Shown one piece after another: positions 7,080 to 61,470 of a DNA stretch of 64,000 bases. The notes under the pieces were generated by a model. That model had not been told where the DNA came from and did no database searches. It saw only the letters and a program-made list of their open reading frames with translations. The DNA is from a virus (Duplodnaviria; Heunggongvirae; Uroviricota; Caudoviricetes), in IMG/VR virus record IMGVR_UViG_3300031133_000383, positions 314,635 through 378,634 of that record; one strand, written 5' to 3'. A program made the translations under genes and the position numbers. Every line of letters starts with the position of its first letter. Position 1 is the stretch's first letter.

Positions 7080-8659
7080 CAATTAGAGACTTGGAAGCCT
7101 CGTCCTTCAGGGCGGGGAGGAATAGTCTCTCATGTCTTCTTTCAATTGGCAACTTATTGAATGTTGACTTTTATTTTTAGTCTCCTATAATATTTTCTAT
7201 TATTTTTTCAACTTTTTTATATGTTGTCTCAGGAGAAACATTTGAAGCGTAACACTAAAAAGAAAAATCCATTGATTGAGACTAGAGTCTGCCAAATGTG
7301 GCTTAATTCTCTTTCTTCTTTCGATCATGATTTTCTTTTTAAACTTTCTACTCATTCTTCTCTTATGTACAATTTTGCACTTTATCAAATTCGGCAAAAC
7401 TATTTTAAATCAAATTTATTGTCTTTTAAAGATAATTATCATTTATGTAAAAACAATGAACACTTTTCTATCTTATTGAACGATTGCTCACAGCAAGTCG
7501 TTCAACTTGCTCATCGTGATTTTAATTCATTTCTTGGATTGTTAAAAGCCAAAAAGAAAGGCACTTATACTAAAGAAGTGAAAATAGCTCGATATAAGAA
7601 AAAAAATAATGAAACTGTTTTGTCAAATATCGTTATTCAAGGTCGTAGTATACGAATAGATCATAAACAATCATCAAAACTAGATAATGTTAATATATTT
7701 AAATTCAATGCTTCCAAGGCTTTTAAATTACTTTATCCCAATACAAGTCATTCTTTTGAATTTCAAGTGCCAAAACATATTCAAACCATTAATGAAATAA
7801 GAATTATTCCACATGGAAAAGCTCCTGTTCAATTTAAACTCGAAGTTGTTTACAAAACAACTATCGAGACAAAAAAAGATGATAATGGTCAATATCTATC
7901 AATAGATCCGGGTTTAAATAATTTAGTAGGTTGTTTTAATTCTAAAAACGGACAGTCGTTTATTATTGATGGTAAATATATTAAATCTATCAATCACTTC
8001 TATAATAAAAAATCGTCTAAGTTACAAAGTAAAATCGATTTACGTAAAAATGAAAAATTAGAAACAAATGATCTAATTAAAAAGAAAAATAAATTAACAC
8101 ACAAAAGAAACAATAAAATTAATGATTATTTCCATCGTTCTACAAAGTTTATTGTTGATTATTGTGTAAAACACAATATCAACAAGATAATTGTTGGTGA
8201 AAATAAAGAACAGAAACAAGATATTAATATCGGTAAAATCAATAATCAAAATTTTGTATTTATTCCTCATGCTAAATTCAAAGATGTACTTGAATATAAG
8301 GCAAAAGCAAAAGGTATTGAAGTAGTAAGATGCGAAGAGTCTTACACTTCAAAAACAAGTTTCATTGACCTAGAACCAATGAAACACCAAGAGAGCTATC
8401 TTGGTAGAAGGACCAAAAGAGGAATGTTCAAAAGCAAAGAAGGAATATTGATAAATTCGGATATAAATGGAGCAGCAAATATACTAAGAAAGTATTTAGA
8501 AAGTAGTGGCAAATTTAAAGAATGGAGAGATCTTTATTTTAAAGAAGCTAGTAAGGGTATCGTAAACTACCCAAAGAAGCAAACCTTGATCAGTTTACTG
8601 ATAAAGTCAGGCTTCAACAAAACTAAAAAAGCTCCGTCCTTCAGGGCGGGGTAGTTTAC
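7080..8659 (+). mobile_element. Non-autonomous IS200/IS605-family (IS1341-like, TnpB-only) element
   Basis: Subterminal palindrome cgtccttcagggcgggg at both 7101-7117 and 8635-8651; right end ...gtagtttac; no tnpA; removing 7080-8659 rejoins a reading frame (cct ttg aaa t|ac aac aag). Confidence 0.85.
7221..8654 (+). CDS. tnpB: RNA-guided endonuclease TnpB
   Basis: MYNFALY wedge; RuvC-I SIDPGLNN; RuvC-II IIVGE; EESYTSK; RuvC-III NSDINGAANI. Confidence 0.93.
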   Translation: MLSQEKHLKRNTKKKNPLIETRVCQMWLNSLSSFDHDFLFKLSTHSSLMYNFALYQIRQNYFKSNLLSFKDNYHLCKNNEHFSILLNDCSQQVVQLAHRDFNSFLGLLKAKKKGTYTKEVKIARYKKKNNETVLSNIVIQGRSIRIDHKQSSKLDNVNIFKFNASKAFKLLYPNTSHSFEFQVPKHIQTINEIRIIPHGKAPVQFKLEVVYKTTIETKKDDNGQYLSIDPGLNNLVGCFNSKNGQSFIIDGKYIKSINHFYNKKSSKLQSKIDLRKNEKLETNDLIKKKNKLTHKRNNKINDYFHRSTKFIVDYCVKHNINKIIVGENKEQKQDINIGKINNQNFVFIPHAKFKDVLEYKAKAKGIEVVRCEESYTSKTSFIDLEPMKHQESYLGRRTKRGMFKSKEGILINSDINGAANILRKYLESSGKFKEWRDLYFKEASKGIVNYPKKQTLISLLIKSGFNKTKKAPSFRAG

Positions 8660-11721: not shown

Positions 11722-13509
11722 ATGAATTTAAATCATTTTACAATTTATACGCAAAAAAAAGCACAGTATAGTGTTGAATCTATCCATTCAGAAGAATTTT
11801 CTTTTGGCAGTTTTTCTGAATTTTTCTCTTCGAACTTTGGTCATTCAAATGCATTGTATAGATCTTTATCCAACGAAGTACTCAATTTACGTTATCAAAA
11901 AATAGATAGTTTTTCAAAGTTTTTAAATAATGAAATTGATTATAGCCTATTACAAAGTCATGCTTTGAGAATAGATAATTTTCAAATTTTTCTACCATTC
12001 AATGTCAAAAAGTTTCAAACAGGAACTGCAGTTCTATTTGAACAGTGGATCAAACAAGCCAAAAAACATGGTGTTGACATAACAGAGGAAAAAGAAAAAT
12101 TCATTCAACTTCAATCACAGGCAATTGAATTAATAAAAAATACAATTAAAGATAAAAGAGTATTTGAAAAAGCTTTCTTTATATTAGGAAATAGTTTTCC
12201 AACACAAGAAGTTCAAAACAATTTAAAGCATTATATAGCAGAAAATAATTCTCTACTATCAACGGACTATTATAAAAAATTTATAGCTGTTGACTGTAAG
12301 CGTATTTTAGATATTGGGGATAAATTATCTTCATTGACCACAGATATTTTAGCAAAAATACGAATATCTTCTCCACATGCCTTTGAAAACATTGCAGAAC
12401 ACTACTCTAATGCTTTAAAAAATGCAAATGGAGATATAAAGAATTTCTTTGTTTCTAAATTTGAAAGCAATATTTTAGGTAATATAGAACTCTCAAAAGG
12501 GCAATCTATTCAGAAAGCTTTAGTCTTTGAAGATGATAGTATTCTATTAATTGATCGTTATGACAACCATATTATTCCAAAAAATAATAATGAATTAGTT
12601 GAAAAACTTGAACAGTTTTATCTTGATATTATTGATTACAAATCTAGAAAAAACCCTACCTTTGCTGTTCTTTTCAAAAACAAGTATAAAGAGGAAAATG
12701 ATATTGAGCGTACACTCATTACAGTTGATTCTTTATTGGAGAATTATAGTATTTTAAAACAAACCAATTTTAATACCGATATATTAAATAAAGGTCTTGA
12801 AGAGATTAACGACTACATCAGTGCGACTGTCAAAACTTTCAAAATCCATAAATATGCATCCAGTATTTTAAGTTCAAAATACAAACATCTATTATCTGAC
12901 GAATCACTACCTTTCTTTGAAAAGTTTTATGAAGAGCAATTAGACACCAGCTATCTTCAGAATTATATTGGTAAAAAACTTGCATTACTTAAAAACCCAG
13001 AAGATTTTAAAGATTTTGTTGAACAAGTTCATAATAATTTATTTTCATTTAATCATGAGAATACATTAAGAAAAGTTAAATTGCTTGATAAGGAAGCTAT
13101 TTACGATAAAGACAATATAATGATTGTTGAAATAAATTCCTTTGATGAAAGTAAAGCGTTGGGCACCGACAACTGGTGTATTTCTCGTAATGACTATTAT
13201 TTCAAAAGTTATTGTGAAAACGAGAATCGTCAATACTTTGTATTTGATTTCAATAGAGAATCAAAAGATCGTTATTCCATGATAGGTATTACATTAACGC
13301 CTTCTGGTACTATACATGCGGCTCATGATAAAACAGACGACAGTGTAAAAAACAATCAGGCAACTATAAAAACAGCTTTGACAATTTTAGCAGCACAATA
13401 TGATCATTACGAAGATAGTTTAAGCGAAGTAACCAAAGAACGAGTATTGGAACATATTAAAGAAGATTCACCAGTAAAAACACATCCTGTTTTTAAACAA
13501 GCTATTTAA
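11722..13509 (+). CDS. Large hypothetical protein with a PcfJ-like C-terminal domain
   Basis: ESKALGTDNWCISR...FKSY...QYFVFDFN...SMIGIT resembles the WC-containing PcfJ-like domain (from memory). Confidence 0.6.
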   Translation: MNLNHFTIYTQKKAQYSVESIHSEEFSFGSFSEFFSSNFGHSNALYRSLSNEVLNLRYQKIDSFSKFLNNEIDYSLLQSHALRIDNFQIFLPFNVKKFQTGTAVLFEQWIKQAKKHGVDITEEKEKFIQLQSQAIELIKNTIKDKRVFEKAFFILGNSFPTQEVQNNLKHYIAENNSLLSTDYYKKFIAVDCKRILDIGDKLSSLTTDILAKIRISSPHAFENIAEHYSNALKNANGDIKNFFVSKFESNILGNIELSKGQSIQKALVFEDDSILLIDRYDNHIIPKNNNELVEKLEQFYLDIIDYKSRKNPTFAVLFKNKYKEENDIERTLITVDSLLENYSILKQTNFNTDILNKGLEEINDYISATVKTFKIHKYASSILSSKYKHLLSDESLPFFEKFYEEQLDTSYLQNYIGKKLALLKNPEDFKDFVEQVHNNLFSFNHENTLRKVKLLDKEAIYDKDNIMIVEINSFDESKALGTDNWCISRNDYYFKSYCENENRQYFVFDFNRESKDRYSMIGITLTPSGTIHAAHDKTDDSVKNNQATIKTALTILAAQYDHYEDSLSEVTKERVLEHIKEDSPVKTHPVFKQAI

Positions 13510-13525
13510 TTATAATGGATTAAAA

Positions 13526-15313
13526 ATGAATATTAATGATTTTATAAAAATTGTACAAGAAAACTATAACTCTAATTTAAATGTTACGTCTGATGACTTT
13601 GTTGCTTTTTGTGTTCATAGGTTAATTCAAGAAACAGACTTGTCGTTCAACTTTTCCAGTACATATCTATGTACTATGGCGACTGATAACTTGATAGGCT
13701 TAATAGGCTTTAATGATCAAAATTCAAAAGATTCATCTGTCTTTCTGTCTGAATATACTCGGGGTACTAATTACGAATCATTCAATATGCACGATAACTA
13801 TCTAAAGAAAAACTATCCACTTATATTAAATTCTCAACAAGTTGGTTTGGTGGAACGTTTTAATGATGTTGTGCAAAATATGGAAAGTTTCAATGATATT
13901 AATAAAGCTTTCACTTTTGATGATATAACACAGTTGAAGCATATCATGCCATTGAAAAAATCTACATTATTGCCATTCTATATAACATCCAACACAGAAA
14001 ATAAATTCGAATCAAGTCACTATAATGCTATTAAGAAAACAAACAGTATATATATCAATAATTCGTTAGAAAATTTACACGATATTTCTCCGAGTTTTAA
14101 TTTTTATTCAAATGATGTAATAAGTAAAATATTATATAAAAATAAAAATGATAAAATACTATTTAACTTTGATGATTTTGATTGTCTTACACATGCAGCA
14201 CAAAGAAAATTACTTCAAACAGCAGGATTGCAGCATGCTCTTATTGACGATGTAGCCTTTGATACTCTGGTTCAAAACGATGAATTTACTGAAAATAATT
14301 TTATGGGTAGACTGGCGGTTTCAAATTCTCTATCAGAAATGATAATTGGTTATTTTGACAGCATGGAATTAGAAGATATAAAATTTGAAATAGAAATGGC
14401 TACGGATCTTGTTAAGTCGCATCCAACATTAGAGAAAATTTTATCAAATAATGTCGCCTTGAAAGAGGCTATTGATAATTGTATATCCATTGCCTTTGAT
14501 AAATATCCTACTTTGAATTATAAAGTTCAGAATATTTCAATTATTAAAGATATCGAACTTATTCATAAAGGTGAAAACTCATTGTTGCCAATAATAGATA
14601 CTTTCAATTTCACACACAATCTCGGTAATTTAGCTGAAATCAATAATAATGGAGACTTATCTATATTTCTATCGCAATTTAGACTATATGGTATGGATTC
14701 CATTACGAATCTAGATCTTCAACCGATAAAAAGTTATGATACAGAATCAGAAGAAAGTATACGATTTATAACTGCTAACCAATTCAATGCTAATGGAATA
14801 CTTTCCGCTAAAATTTTTAGAGCCGATGATACTCATCATCATTTAAAAATTAAGTCAGTTATCATTGATCCTTGCTTACCCAAAAAAGCAATTAACGAAT
14901 TAATTGAAAGTACATTTGAATATGCAAAAAAACATAGTTTAATTTTAGATTTTGATTTACCAGAAACTTTTAAATATGGTAACTTAGCCAAAGATGATTT
15001 TATTGATATGCTTCAAGTATTTAGACATTCCTATAAAGACTCAGTAGTGTGTATTGCTGATTTTGGTGGGATTGATTTCATTAGTAATAATAAGTCTACT
15101 ATTCAAATAGAATCTTTAGTTAATAGCTATATGTTTATGGCAAAAAAAGCCGATTTTTCCTATGCCGAGCTTATCAAAGCTAAACCGCTTCTTGAAAATA
15201 TTCATCTTGAAAATATCAAGAGTCAAAGTAGTCATATAGAGCGAAAAATGGATAAACTAATGGAATCATTAAAAGGCGATAAAAATTTATTAAAACATCA
15301 AAAGCCTGTATGA
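13526..15313 (+). CDS. Large hypothetical protein
   Basis: 595-aa ORF; ends KNLLKHQKPV. Confidence 0.8.
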   Translation: MNINDFIKIVQENYNSNLNVTSDDFVAFCVHRLIQETDLSFNFSSTYLCTMATDNLIGLIGFNDQNSKDSSVFLSEYTRGTNYESFNMHDNYLKKNYPLILNSQQVGLVERFNDVVQNMESFNDINKAFTFDDITQLKHIMPLKKSTLLPFYITSNTENKFESSHYNAIKKTNSIYINNSLENLHDISPSFNFYSNDVISKILYKNKNDKILFNFDDFDCLTHAAQRKLLQTAGLQHALIDDVAFDTLVQNDEFTENNFMGRLAVSNSLSEMIIGYFDSMELEDIKFEIEMATDLVKSHPTLEKILSNNVALKEAIDNCISIAFDKYPTLNYKVQNISIIKDIELIHKGENSLLPIIDTFNFTHNLGNLAEINNNGDLSIFLSQFRLYGMDSITNLDLQPIKSYDTESEESIRFITANQFNANGILSAKIFRADDTHHHLKIKSVIIDPCLPKKAINELIESTFEYAKKHSLILDFDLPETFKYGNLAKDDFIDMLQVFRHSYKDSVVCIADFGGIDFISNNKSTIQIESLVNSYMFMAKKADFSYAELIKAKPLLENIHLENIKSQSSHIERKMDKLMESLKGDKNLLKHQKPV

Positions 15314-20501: not shown

Positions 20502-20578
20502 GGGACTTTAGCTCAGTTGGTTAGAGCGTCCGACTCATAATCGGCAGGTCGTAGGTTCAAGTCCTACAAGTCCCACCA
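20502..20578 (+). tRNA. tRNA(CAU), probably Ile2 (lysidine type); elongator Met not excluded
   Basis: Full cloverleaf, anticodon arm ccga-CT CAT AA-tcgg, encoded CCA; lacks initiator features. Confidence 0.93.
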
Positions 20579-20952: not shown

Positions 20953-21033
20953 TGGATTAAGAAGACTTCTACGGAAGTCTTTTTTTTGATCACTATTATT
21001 TAGAGAATATTTTTAAATTTAATCAAAAAAATC

Positions 21034-21062
21034 TTGAAAATGTAGAGGTATTTTGATATTAT
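21034..21062 (+). promoter_or_regulatory. Sigma70-like promoter for the ncRNA operon
   Basis: TTGAAA-17nt-TATTAT. Confidence 0.65.
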
Positions 21063-21065
21063 AGC

Positions 21066-21222
21066 GTTGTTGGGAATCCGAGAAATCTTGAGTGAGCAGA
21101 TCGAAGTATGGAGTTGTGATCCATATCCTAAACTAGGCTCAGGCGTTGACGCAGGCAGGTGACATGACGATACGATGTCCCGGTAGACACACTACGCCGG
21201 AAATCTGTAACCAATCAATAGC
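21066..21222 (+). ncRNA. Candidate structured ncRNA (about 155 nt)
   Basis: GC-rich, no ORF; closing helix gttgttgg/ccaatcaat; internal helices tgagc/gctca, tatgga/tccata, gcagg/tctgt, gacat/atgtc, ccgg-tag/cta-ccgg. Confidence 0.6.
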
Positions 21223-21267
21223 GGTATCACTAGTGCTTCATATCGTGTATTGATATATATTGAATTT

Positions 21268-21561
21268 TGGGAGGTGGGCTTAGAAGCAGCCATCCTTTAA
21301 AGAGTAGGGCAAAAGCCATCGGTGTTTGGGATATCAACAGTAATCATGTTTTGTTTCTGTTTTAAGAAATAAGCATGACAAGTGAGACAGGGTAGATAAT
21401 GAATGAATCCACTTTTAATTAGTTCATTTTCTATCAAAAAGACTCAGCTAAAGATGCCCAACGGTAGCCTAGAAAGCTTACTGTTTGCCGTGGTAGTGGT
21501 CTTGGTAAAGTGAATAATAGAGTTTGTCATATTATTCCCCTTTTGGCGTAATAGCACACCA
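21268..21561 (+). ncRNA. ncRNA mimicking the 23S rRNA L11-binding domain (H43-H44) with a ~240-nt insert
   Basis: 5' half TGGGAGGTGGGCTTAGAAGCAGCCATCCTTTAAAGAGT aligns to E. coli 23S 1053-1090; 3' half GCGTAATAGCACACCA aligns to 1091-1106; no other rRNA sequence around it. Confidence 0.85.
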
Positions 21562-21614
21562 TTATTTTGTATTTTAAAATCGTTATTGTACATTTGTTTA
21601 TCTTTTTACTAAAA

Positions 21615-21683
21615 CTGCCACCAAGGCTGACGCTGGGCTTCTAAAACCTAAGCGGAAGGGTTCGAATCCCTTGTGGTGGACCA
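21615..21683 (+). tRNA. Short (69-nt) tRNA with CUA anticodon and reduced D arm; amber suppressor-like
   Basis: Acceptor ctgccac/gtggtgg plus A-CCA; T arm aaggg-TTCGAAT-ccctt; anticodon arm tgggc-TT CTA AA-accta. Confidence 0.7.
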
Positions 21684-21694
21684 ATTTTAAACAC

Positions 21695-21713
21695 GCTCAT
21701 TCTGAGCTTTTTT
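21695..21713 (+). terminator. Probable intrinsic terminator of the ncRNA operon
   Basis: gctca-ttc-tgagc plus T tract. Confidence 0.55.
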
Positions 21714-21730
21714 ATTTATCGGAGAATCTG

Positions 21731-22375
21731 ATGAGTTTTTTAATTTATTCTCAAATTGAATCCCGTCTAGAACAGGTTTTCGCTTAATTGAATTCTAAAT
21801 TTGGCGTTGTTGTGATTAAACATTATATTAAGCCTCGTTCTGAACAAGCTGGGAAAATATATGAAGTCATTTCAAATTTGGGTACATTTGAAATTGTGCT
21901 CTATACCAATTATAGTAATGTAACCTTTAAGGAATTGATTGTTTGTGAAAATGGTCAATTAGTCAATTACTCATCGTCATCCATTCTTGATAGTGTTGTC
22001 AATCAAATCAATCAAAAACTTGATATCTTGAAAGCCGTTAGAGTCATTCCATTTGAAGAGTCTATCAGTCATTTCATGGATAATGTCAAAGTTCAAATCA
22101 AGATGAGACTAAACAAGCATCTTCATATTCGAAACCAATTTAGTGTTAGTGTCACTATTCGCAAAGAAGACTGCATTTTACTTGTGGGTAATGTAACTGA
22201 TACCATCTTGGTTGATCGGGGTTTAATTTTCTCTTTTAAGGAAGACGAATTATACATGGCTGATTCATGGCAGTACCTGAAAGAGTTCATTCATACCACT
22301 TACAACATACCCCTGAATCAAAAAGATGTGGATTATGCTGATTTAGGCTCTGTTATTGATATGGTTCATCTTTGA
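21731..22375 (+). pseudogene. EM-motif-family gene with a premature in-frame TAA at 21785-21787
   Basis: SD ggag plus ATG 21731 (MSFLIYSQIESRLEQVFA*) in frame with ORF 21788-22375, which ends LGSVIDMVHL. Confidence 0.65.
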
Positions 22376-61312: not shown

Positions 61313-61386
61313 TTCTCGTTAGTTTAACGGTAGAACAGCGGCCTCTAAAACCGTGTATGCGGGTTCGAATCCCGCACGAGGAACCA
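61313..61386 (+). tRNA. Amber suppressor tRNA (CUA)
   Basis: Acceptor ttctcgt/acgagga, D arm gttt/gaac, anticodon arm gcggc-CT CTA AA-accgt, T arm gcggg-TTCGAAT-cccgc, A-CCA. Confidence 0.88.
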
Positions 61387-61393
61387 GTATCAT

Positions 61394-61470
61394 GGGACTT
61401 TAGCTCAGTTGGTTAGAGCGTCCGACTCATAATCGGCAGGTCGTAGGTTCAAGTCCTACAAGTCCCACCA
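61394..61470 (+). tRNA. tRNA(CAU), probably Ile2; identical to 20502-20578
   Basis: 77-nt exact copy. Confidence 0.93.

Follow-up and report, generated by a model that had tools for sequence, protein, structure and literature searches.

The window analysed here is a stretch of 64,000 nucleotides, bases 314635-378634 of the 437,043-bp IMG/VR virus record IMGVR_UViG_3300031133_000383 (Caudoviricetes; 98% complete by the CheckV estimate), with a G+C content of 31.6%. At positions 21268-21561 of its plus strand lies a non-coding RNA of about 294 nt, hereafter called the mimic. Its two ends form a split copy of nucleotides 1053-1106 of 23S rRNA, which belong to the GTPase-associated centre, and a structured insert stands between them. 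The parts of the element are as follows.

21268-21305 (+): 5' half, 23S 1053-1090 (UGGGAGGUGGGCUUAGAAGCAGCCAUCCUUUAAAGAGU), 31 of 38 nucleotides identical to enterobacterial 23S rRNA; holds the complete H43 hairpin, the turn 1082-1086, and the 5' strands of both the outer stem and lower H44
21272-21296 (+): H43 hairpin (1057-1081), with the loop 1066-1072 at 21281-21287
21306-21545 (+): insert of 240 nt between U1090 and G1091, with helices of its own
21306-21309 / 21538-21541 (+): stem AGGG/CCCU that closes the insert
21315-21324 / 21486-21494 (+): insert helix
21327-21330 / 21457-21460 (+): insert helix, UGGG/CCCA
21338-21341 / 21447-21450 (+): insert helix
21344-21351 / 21371-21378 (+): insert helix
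21383-21386 / 21443-21446 (+): insert helix
21391-21404 / 21422-21435 (+): insert helix, long hairpin
21461-21468 / 21477-21484 (+): insert helix
21512-21519 / 21530-21537 (+): insert helix, hairpin
21542-21545 (+): linker UUUG between the closing stem and the 3' half
21546-21561 (+): 3' half, 23S 1091-1106 (GCGUAAUAGCACACCA), 13 of 16 nucleotides identical to 23S rRNA; comprises upper H44, including the A1095 loop, and supplies the 3' strands to lower H44 and the outer stem

The core was compared with the 23S rRNA of Salmonella LT2 (locus L195:296-353), a stretch whose sequence we take to be that of E. coli 1051-1108. In the 5' half, 7 of 38 positions deviate from it (1053, 1054, 1058, 1061, 1080, 1089 and 1090); in the 3' half, 3 of 16 do (1101, 1105 and 1106). 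The loops 1065-1073 (UUAGAAGCA) and 1093-1098 (GUAAUA) show no difference, A1067 being position 21282 of the window and A1095 position 21550. Direct reading thus confirmed the claim of the original prediction, made from the letters of the window, that the two halves of the domain are present with the A1067 and A1095 loops intact. Eight of the ten core differences make up four paired replacements, U1053-A1106, G1054-C1105, G1058-C1080 and U1090-A1101, and these are exactly the pairs which had been named as compensatory; the unpaired differences are G1061 and G1089. When the whole window was compared by BLAST with two real 23S loci, only the 5' half matched, with E values of 3e-7 and 4e-6. At the expected position, 23S also contains the 3' decamer GCGUAAUAGC. 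BLAST and sequence matching found no other 23S-like pieces in the predicted operon around the mimic or in the 64-kb window, in agreement with the earlier statement that no further rRNA sequence flanks the element.

A search of Rfam 15 at the gathering score gave nothing over 21268-21561, and no LSU model matched even partially. At E ≤10 the search gave one below-threshold match only, to snoR118 within the insert (21392-21487, 20.7 bits, at a gathering score of 44). No named family had been recognised for the element, and the search agrees with this; the split partial LSU matches that had been expected of this search did not appear. In contrast to Rfam, a covariance model built from 38 other members of the family described below matches the window element at 54.9 bits (E 4e-17), with a second match at 21496-21564 (E 1e-6). 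The phage carries a single copy of the mimic. In the minimum-free-energy fold of the element alone (z = -1.7) the core is not formed, which is expected, since its fold is held by tertiary contacts.

IMG/VR was scanned with two patterns, each built on one of the rRNA halves, which gave at least 175 instances and at least 141 unique sequences with both halves linked. Real 23S rRNA turned up only twice among the matches listed, and 34 of 80 contigs among the matches listed are longer than 100 kb. The two halves stay linked across a variable insert in all of the at least 141 unique homologs, the opposite of the unlinked halves that had been named as the refuting outcome. Covariation was read on the 125 members with a readable core register, and the formal count was made on 38 diverse members. 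In the latter, 95.9% of the cells were paired, versus 78.4% in shuffles. The covariation score was 0.470 versus 0.126 in shuffles, none of 500 of which reached the observed value, and slid partners gave 0.07-0.16. Eleven pairs change on both sides in the 38 members, including 1058:1080, 1057:1081 and the pair 1082:1086 of the tertiary turn; two-sided changes were also found at 1052:1107, 1053:1106, 1054:1105 and 1055:1104. Among the 125 members, all four Watson-Crick types occur at 1052:1107, 1053:1106 and 1058:1080, the last of which is paired in 100% of them. The pair 1054:1105 occurs as G-C, A-U and U-A, 1057:1081 as A-U and C-G, and the turn-closing pair 1082:1086 as U-A, C-G and A-U (98% paired). 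The purine-A mismatch 1056/1103 is retained across the family. Thus the mimicry of rRNA is at the level of the fold, and this fold is under selection, as the original prediction had proposed.

The unpaired nucleotides of the core were also conserved. When the conservation of each half was recomputed only on the members found via the other half, the picture was the same: U1060, A1077, A1088, G1071, C1072, G1093 and A1098 do not vary, not even in the half that played no part in detecting the member. We take these to be the nucleotides of the tertiary contacts of the domain, presumably U1060 with A1088, the 1082:1086 pair, and G1071 and C1072 with the pairs 1091-1092/1099-1100. At the sequence level the tertiary-contact nucleotides are all invariant, save the covarying 1082:1086. 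Also invariant are G1091-C1100, C1092-G1099 and G1093/A1098. A1067 is conserved in 90% of the family and A1095 in 96%. The variable positions are 1061 (U in 70%, A in 16%, G in 11%), A1067, G1068, A1070, A1096 (75%) and U1097 (49%). About 27% of the members have a purine at 1061, and the window has a G there. The substitution U1061A was reported to stabilise the tertiary fold with Mg2+ (PMC6239185). The frequent purine at this position is thus consistent with selection for a domain that folds in isolation from the ribosome.

Other features of the family are foreign to rRNA. Between U1090 and G1091 all members carry an insert, 32-382 nt long. The stem that closes the insert covaries in the 38 members, where all four of its pairs show two-sided changes. 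Of the 69 members that were selected through their 5' half only, 55 have UUUG as the linker and 9 have UUUA. At position 1101, 96% of the members have an A, which pairs with U1090. No insertion breaks the 3' strand of H44 in the family. Judging from this secondary structure, lower and upper H44 could stack as they do in the ribosome, while the insert would exit sideways. A second hairpin follows A1077 of H43 in 15 of 140 members, among them L102, L115, L131, L132, L151, L152, L161, L165, L181, L183, L189 and L194. In L194, two copies of the mimic stand in tandem. The high similarity to 23S would also be expected of a functionless, decaying scrap of host 23S rDNA. However, compensatory changes preserve every helix, flanking rRNA sequence is absent, and at least 141 unique copies in unrelated phages share derived traits that rRNA does not have, namely the 1090/1091 insert, the linker UUUG and A1101. 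The covariation data exclude such a scrap, and we give it practically no chance.

The inserts themselves vary. In 35 of 140 members (for example, L003:1640-1660 and L172) the insert carries a module CCCC-(3-bp hairpin with a GNRA or UAAC tetraloop)-GGUAAGG, which stands at a fixed distance of 15 nt from the insert end, just before G1091, and its loop-adjacent pair covaries. Its probable role is that of a docking hairpin, which would stabilise the junction. In the window, an A/U hairpin takes its place. For the insert of the window, helices were compared with the relatives close enough to align, the contigs L172 and L406 and partly L156. A search for further relatives of this insert found only these three and four chance matches in coding DNA. 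In the comparison with L172 and L406, 17 pairs show a compensatory change. The closure AGGG/CCCU becomes AGAG/CUCU in these relatives, the helix 21461-21468 / 21477-21484 has four compensatory pairs, and the helices 21315-21324 / 21486-21494 and UGGG/CCCA are kept. The long hairpin 21391-21404 / 21422-21435, absent from the helices listed earlier, has seven compensatory pairs, and the hairpin 21512-21519 / 21530-21537 is peculiar to the window phage. RNAalifold on three sequences proposed an alternative partner, 21497-21502, for 21306-21311. The family-wide covariation favours the AGGG/CCCU closure over this alternative. Together, the compensatory pairs and the family covariation bear out the earlier description of a domain with its own helices, closed by AGGG/CCCU, between 1090 and 1091.

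An insert that is present in every member, has covarying helices of its own and shares a module in a quarter of the cases listed above could mean that the rRNA fold does no more than provide a robust scaffold or a handle for processing, and that the variable insert carries a lineage-specific function. We consider this very unlikely. The family-wide conservation lies in the rRNA-like core, down to the unpaired loop nucleotides, whereas the inserts share almost nothing across the family and the shortest are single hairpins. For a scaffold, the intact A1067 and A1095 loops would be superfluous.

The family occurs in cultured phages as well. BLAST found the unannotated 5' half in Aeromonas phage 4_4572, in Pseudomonas phages pf16, UNO-G1W1, Milchi and Astolliot, in Xanthomonas phages XacN1 and XaC1, in the Rak2-like phages GAP32, CBB and fHe-Yen9-03/04, and in one Vibrio phage and one Paenibacillus phage. 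The hosts of the cultured carriers include Pseudomonas, Aeromonas, Xanthomonas, Cronobacter, Pectobacterium, Yersinia and Vibrio, and the family is present in phages of several bacterial phyla. At the five cultured-phage loci which were inspected, the 3' half lies 120-240 nt after the 5' half, and at four of these the element stands among tRNA genes and on their strand. A covariance model trained on 38 short members recovered pf16, 4_4572 and XacN1, which were outside the training set, at 85-102 bits. In XacN1 (L005, 149050-152085) the mimic directly follows an annotated 2'-5' RNA ligase gene and is followed by its own terminator-like hairpin; the 3-kb stretch contains no annotated tRNA genes. 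In 185,579 genomes of bacterial and archaeal species, the 3' pattern had 88 matches, about 30 of them with an upstream 5' half. The chance expectation for this pattern is about 69, which accounts for the matches beyond the approximately 30 real elements. Most of these real elements are on metagenome-assembled contigs, many also with tRNA arrays. The family is essentially restricted to phages and is rare in bacterial genomes. As a control, we took 115 viral loci chosen by the tRNA T-arm motif alone, and the mimic was present in 4 of them.

The family stands in a tRNA context. All 413 of the 413 tRNA genes within 2 kb of an element are on the strand of the element. The tRNA-Met that flanks the mimic in the window is also on the same (+) strand. 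For 35 elements a tRNA lies no more than 30 nt before their start, and for 34 a tRNA begins within 30 nt of their end. The RNAs are therefore probably released by the enzymes that process the 5' and 3' ends of tRNA. The identity of the flanking tRNA is not conserved across the family loci. No steady protein neighbour was found at the 140 loci; the commonest one is an HNH endonuclease (10 of 140), followed by TerD proteins and Pnkp/RNA-ligase repair proteins (Pnkp/Rnl in 4 loci). The 437-kb phage genome encodes no uL11, bL12 or RelA/SpoT domains. Since there is neither a conserved neighbour protein nor a phage-encoded domain of this kind, the partner of the RNA should be a host factor, and since the family spans phages of several bacterial phyla, this partner should be universal.

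Tentatively, we favour the possibility that the RNA is an off-ribosome molecular mimic which binds a protein recognising the GTPase-associated centre, most likely uL11. The copied domain folds alone, and the binding of uL11 needs only the folded domain (PMC6239185). The footprint of the uL11 C-terminal domain covers 1058-1060, 1062-1065, 1075-1083 and 1088 (PMC1802607). In the family this footprint is conserved or covarying, and the universal insert site lies outside it. We rank uL11 first because the domain folds alone, uL11 reads the fold, and the footprint is kept and is away from the insert. From the sequence we infer the expression, processing, ligand and host effect of the mimic as follows. 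The mimic would be transcribed with tRNA genes and cut free by tRNA-processing enzymes, which would give a stable non-coding RNA. The ends of this RNA would rebuild the self-folding 58-nt GTPase-associated centre, that is, the top of H42, H43 and H44 with both loops. The insert would leave H44 at 1090/1091 via the closing stem and the UUUG linker, so that the 3' strand of H44 would be continuous and the native hairpin would still stack. The C-terminal domain of uL11 would bind this isolated folded domain, and uL11 would be soaked up. Ribosomes short of uL11 would then show weaker RelA activation, weaker RF1 termination and a weaker GTPase turnover of factors such as EF-G. RelA activation depends on uL11, as is known from the relC literature. 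The turnover of EF-G and termination by RF1 are also uL11-dependent (PMC1802607). The original prediction had proposed uL11 titration, dampening of RelA or a decoy for a ribosome-directed defence. These are three different mechanisms which computation does not separate, and as a functional reading they are plausible.

Several observations weigh against uL11 as the ligand. The hairpin after A1077, in 15 of 140 members, lies inside the published uL11 footprint and may hinder the binding of uL11 in those RNAs. Depletion of an abundant ribosomal protein, most of which is already assembled, would require a high copy number of the RNA. The constant presence of the insert is not accounted for. The A1067 and A1095 loops are conserved, and they are not needed for the binding of the uL11 C-terminal domain; this conservation points at least equally to a factor, antibiotic or toxin that reads the loops.

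The same loops would be kept if the RNA diverted, as a decoy or substrate sink, an enzyme directed against the site, such as an ADP-ribosyltransferase, nuclease or methyltransferase of a host defence or of a competitor. For such a target Tre23 is a precedent: this toxin ADP-ribosylates nucleotides 1095-1098 of H44 and blocks the GTPase of EF-G (PMC8661411). The tRNA arrays that carry the mimic lie near RNA-repair genes: the Pnkp/Rnl genes in 4 loci, the 2'-5' RNA ligase gene of XacN1, and in the window a gene of an Rnl1-like RNA ligase, whose best protein match (43% identical) is in the Ralstonia jumbo phage RsoM2USA. Phage tRNA arrays with RNA-repair genes are a counter-defence setting. By analogy, the mimic may be a parallel to the phage tRNAs that stand in for, or protect, tRNAs attacked by defence nucleases. 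However, we know of no anti-phage system aimed at the site of the GTPase-associated centre, and Tre23 is an interbacterial toxin. A1096 and U1097, in the target window of Tre23, are the most variable positions of the loops. A stoichiometric decoy would also be a weak answer to a catalytic toxin. On balance, we regard an enzyme sink as unlikely.

It is also conceivable that the RNA directly binds a translational GTPase, a release factor or RelA, and in this way retunes elongation, termination or the stringent response. The loops contacted by the factors are conserved, as such imitation of the factor site would predict. Moreover, a hairpin resembling the sarcin-ricin loop occurs in the inserts of L030 (AGUACGGGAGGAA, element position 262) and L119 (GGUACGAGAGGAAG, position 264), and such RNAs would imitate both halves of the factor site. 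EF-G is said to bind oligonucleotide copies of both rRNA domains (Munishkin and Wool, 1997). But only 2 of 140 members, both long, have this hairpin, and the insert of the window does not; since about 0.1 would be expected by chance, the signal is borderline. The affinity of the factors for the naked domain is weak compared with that of uL11, and position 1067 is not A in about 10% of the members. A direct contact with a factor seems to us still less likely than an enzyme sink.

The uL11-binding mimic that we favour has its closest likeness in the GTPase-associated centre of 23S rRNA itself (E. coli 1051-1108, the 58-60-nt domain that binds uL11 and thiostrepton), with which it shares the secondary structure, the loop sequences, the invariant tertiary-contact nucleotides and the covarying pairs. 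In contrast to that domain, the mimic is encoded by phages among tRNA genes and outside any rRNA gene, always has the 1090/1091 insert with the UUUG linker and the A1101-U1090 pair, and often has a purine at 1061. The leaders of ribosomal-protein operons (the L10 leader RF00557 and the L11-operon leader bound by L1) are likewise off-ribosome copies of an rRNA protein site which compete for the protein. Those leaders act in cis, upstream of ribosomal-protein genes in cellular genomes, whereas the mimic stands alone between a promoter-like and a terminator-like site, has a tRNA-like RNA and no protein gene downstream, and matches no Rfam leader. The stable non-tRNA RNAs rnaC and rnaD of T4 (species 1 and 2) are, like the mimic, on the same strand as the phage tRNA genes. 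We rejected them as members of the family: the best match of the family model in the T4 tRNA region had 6.5 bits (E 0.27) and lay in segB, and the T4 RNAs have no rRNA motifs. GOLLD and ROOL are large structured non-coding RNAs of phages and prophages which are often found beside tRNA genes. To our knowledge, no rRNA mimicry has been reported for either. Rfam 15 presumably holds them as RF01998 and RF03087, and, if so, neither matched the mimic at E ≤10. The phage tRNAs that replace or shield nuclease-attacked tRNAs share with the mimic the setting and the idea of a translation RNA copied by a phage. The difference is that the mimic copies a part of rRNA which cannot work alone as part of a ribosome, and therefore only the role of a ligand or a decoy is left to it.

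No published description of such an RNA was found in the open-access full-text literature. A catalogue of about 10,000 viral structured-RNA candidates reports no overlap with rRNA predictions (PMC10690425). This catalogue could contain the family unnamed. If our reading is true, phages carry a stand-alone RNA version of one of the ribosome's functional centres, a kind of mimicry that is not known to have been described for any virus. It would be widespread, given the at least 141 distinct copies and its presence in 4 of the 115 sampled phage tRNA loci, and it would be a new point of contact between phages and host translation, at the uL11 stalk base, which controls the GTPase activity of factors, termination by RF1 and the activation of RelA. 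The unannotated gaps in the tRNA arrays of pf16, GAP32 and XacN1 would obtain a function. Phage tRNA arrays thus hold cargo beyond tRNAs. The idea can be tested in cultured phages, and the well-studied 58-nt rRNA domain is a natural control.

In the window, the mimic lies in about 800 nt without a credible open reading frame (ORF), between an ORF that ends at 20993 and one that starts at 21788. The further features of this gap are the following.

21034-21062 (+): promoter-like site TTGAAA, 17 nt, TG-n-TATTAT; 10 of 12 matches to the consensus with an extended -10 TG, by consensus match only
21066-21250 (+): upstream RNA of about 180 nt, richer in G+C, outside the mimic; head of the same predicted transcript
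21615-21687 (+): tRNA-like RNA of about 70 nt; its anticodon is CUA, its T arm is normal and it ends in ACCA
21695-21716 (+): intrinsic-terminator-like hairpin (21695-21707) and T run, end of the operon

Within the upstream RNA there is no ORF, Rfam gives it no match, and none of the fetched loci contains a homolog; the operons of L172 and L406 lack it. In these two contigs a site TTGCCA-17-TATAAT is located about 25 nt upstream of the mimic itself. The tRNA-like RNA has only about 12 nt in place of the D arm, and neither ARAGORN nor the Rfam tRNA model calls it. It also directly follows the mimic in L172, L156 and L406; its relatives show paired changes in the anticodon stem and retain the C31/A39 mismatch. 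Thus, by its sequence signals, the mimic of the window phage is part of a predicted RNA-only operon and is followed by a tRNA(CUA) without a D arm, and the pair is kept in three related contigs.

In this lineage, the operon might consist of two parts which together override termination: the mimic would draw uL11 or RF1 away, and the CUA tRNA would read UAG. The basis of this idea is that termination by RF1 depends on uL11 (PMC1802607), and the mimic and the CUA tRNA are kept together in all four members of the lineage. We consider it highly improbable. Recoding of TAG was not seen in the window, where TAG ends 6 of 52 long ORFs and its use as a sense codon opens the fewest frames. A family-wide link with amber suppressors was rejected: CUA tRNAs are present at 9 of 140 mimic loci and at 3 of 115 control loci, a difference which was judged, without a formal test, to be too small.

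Other genes of the window were noted in passing. A second CUA tRNA, of normal shape, lies at 61313-61386 (+), and ARAGORN labels it Pyl. Two tRNA-Met(CAU) genes, at 20502-20578 and 61394-61470 (+), are 41 kb apart; they agree fully in their aligned sequence, and each scores 74.2 bits in Rfam. A megablast search with 20 kb of the window revealed no close relative among cultured phages. The adjacent ORFs 11722-13509 and 13526-15313 (+) each encode 595 aa with no PHROG match, and may be tandem paralogs. Finally, a 477-aa ORF at 7221-8654 (+) in this jumbo phage genome has a match to a transposase family (phrog_506, E 3e-31).

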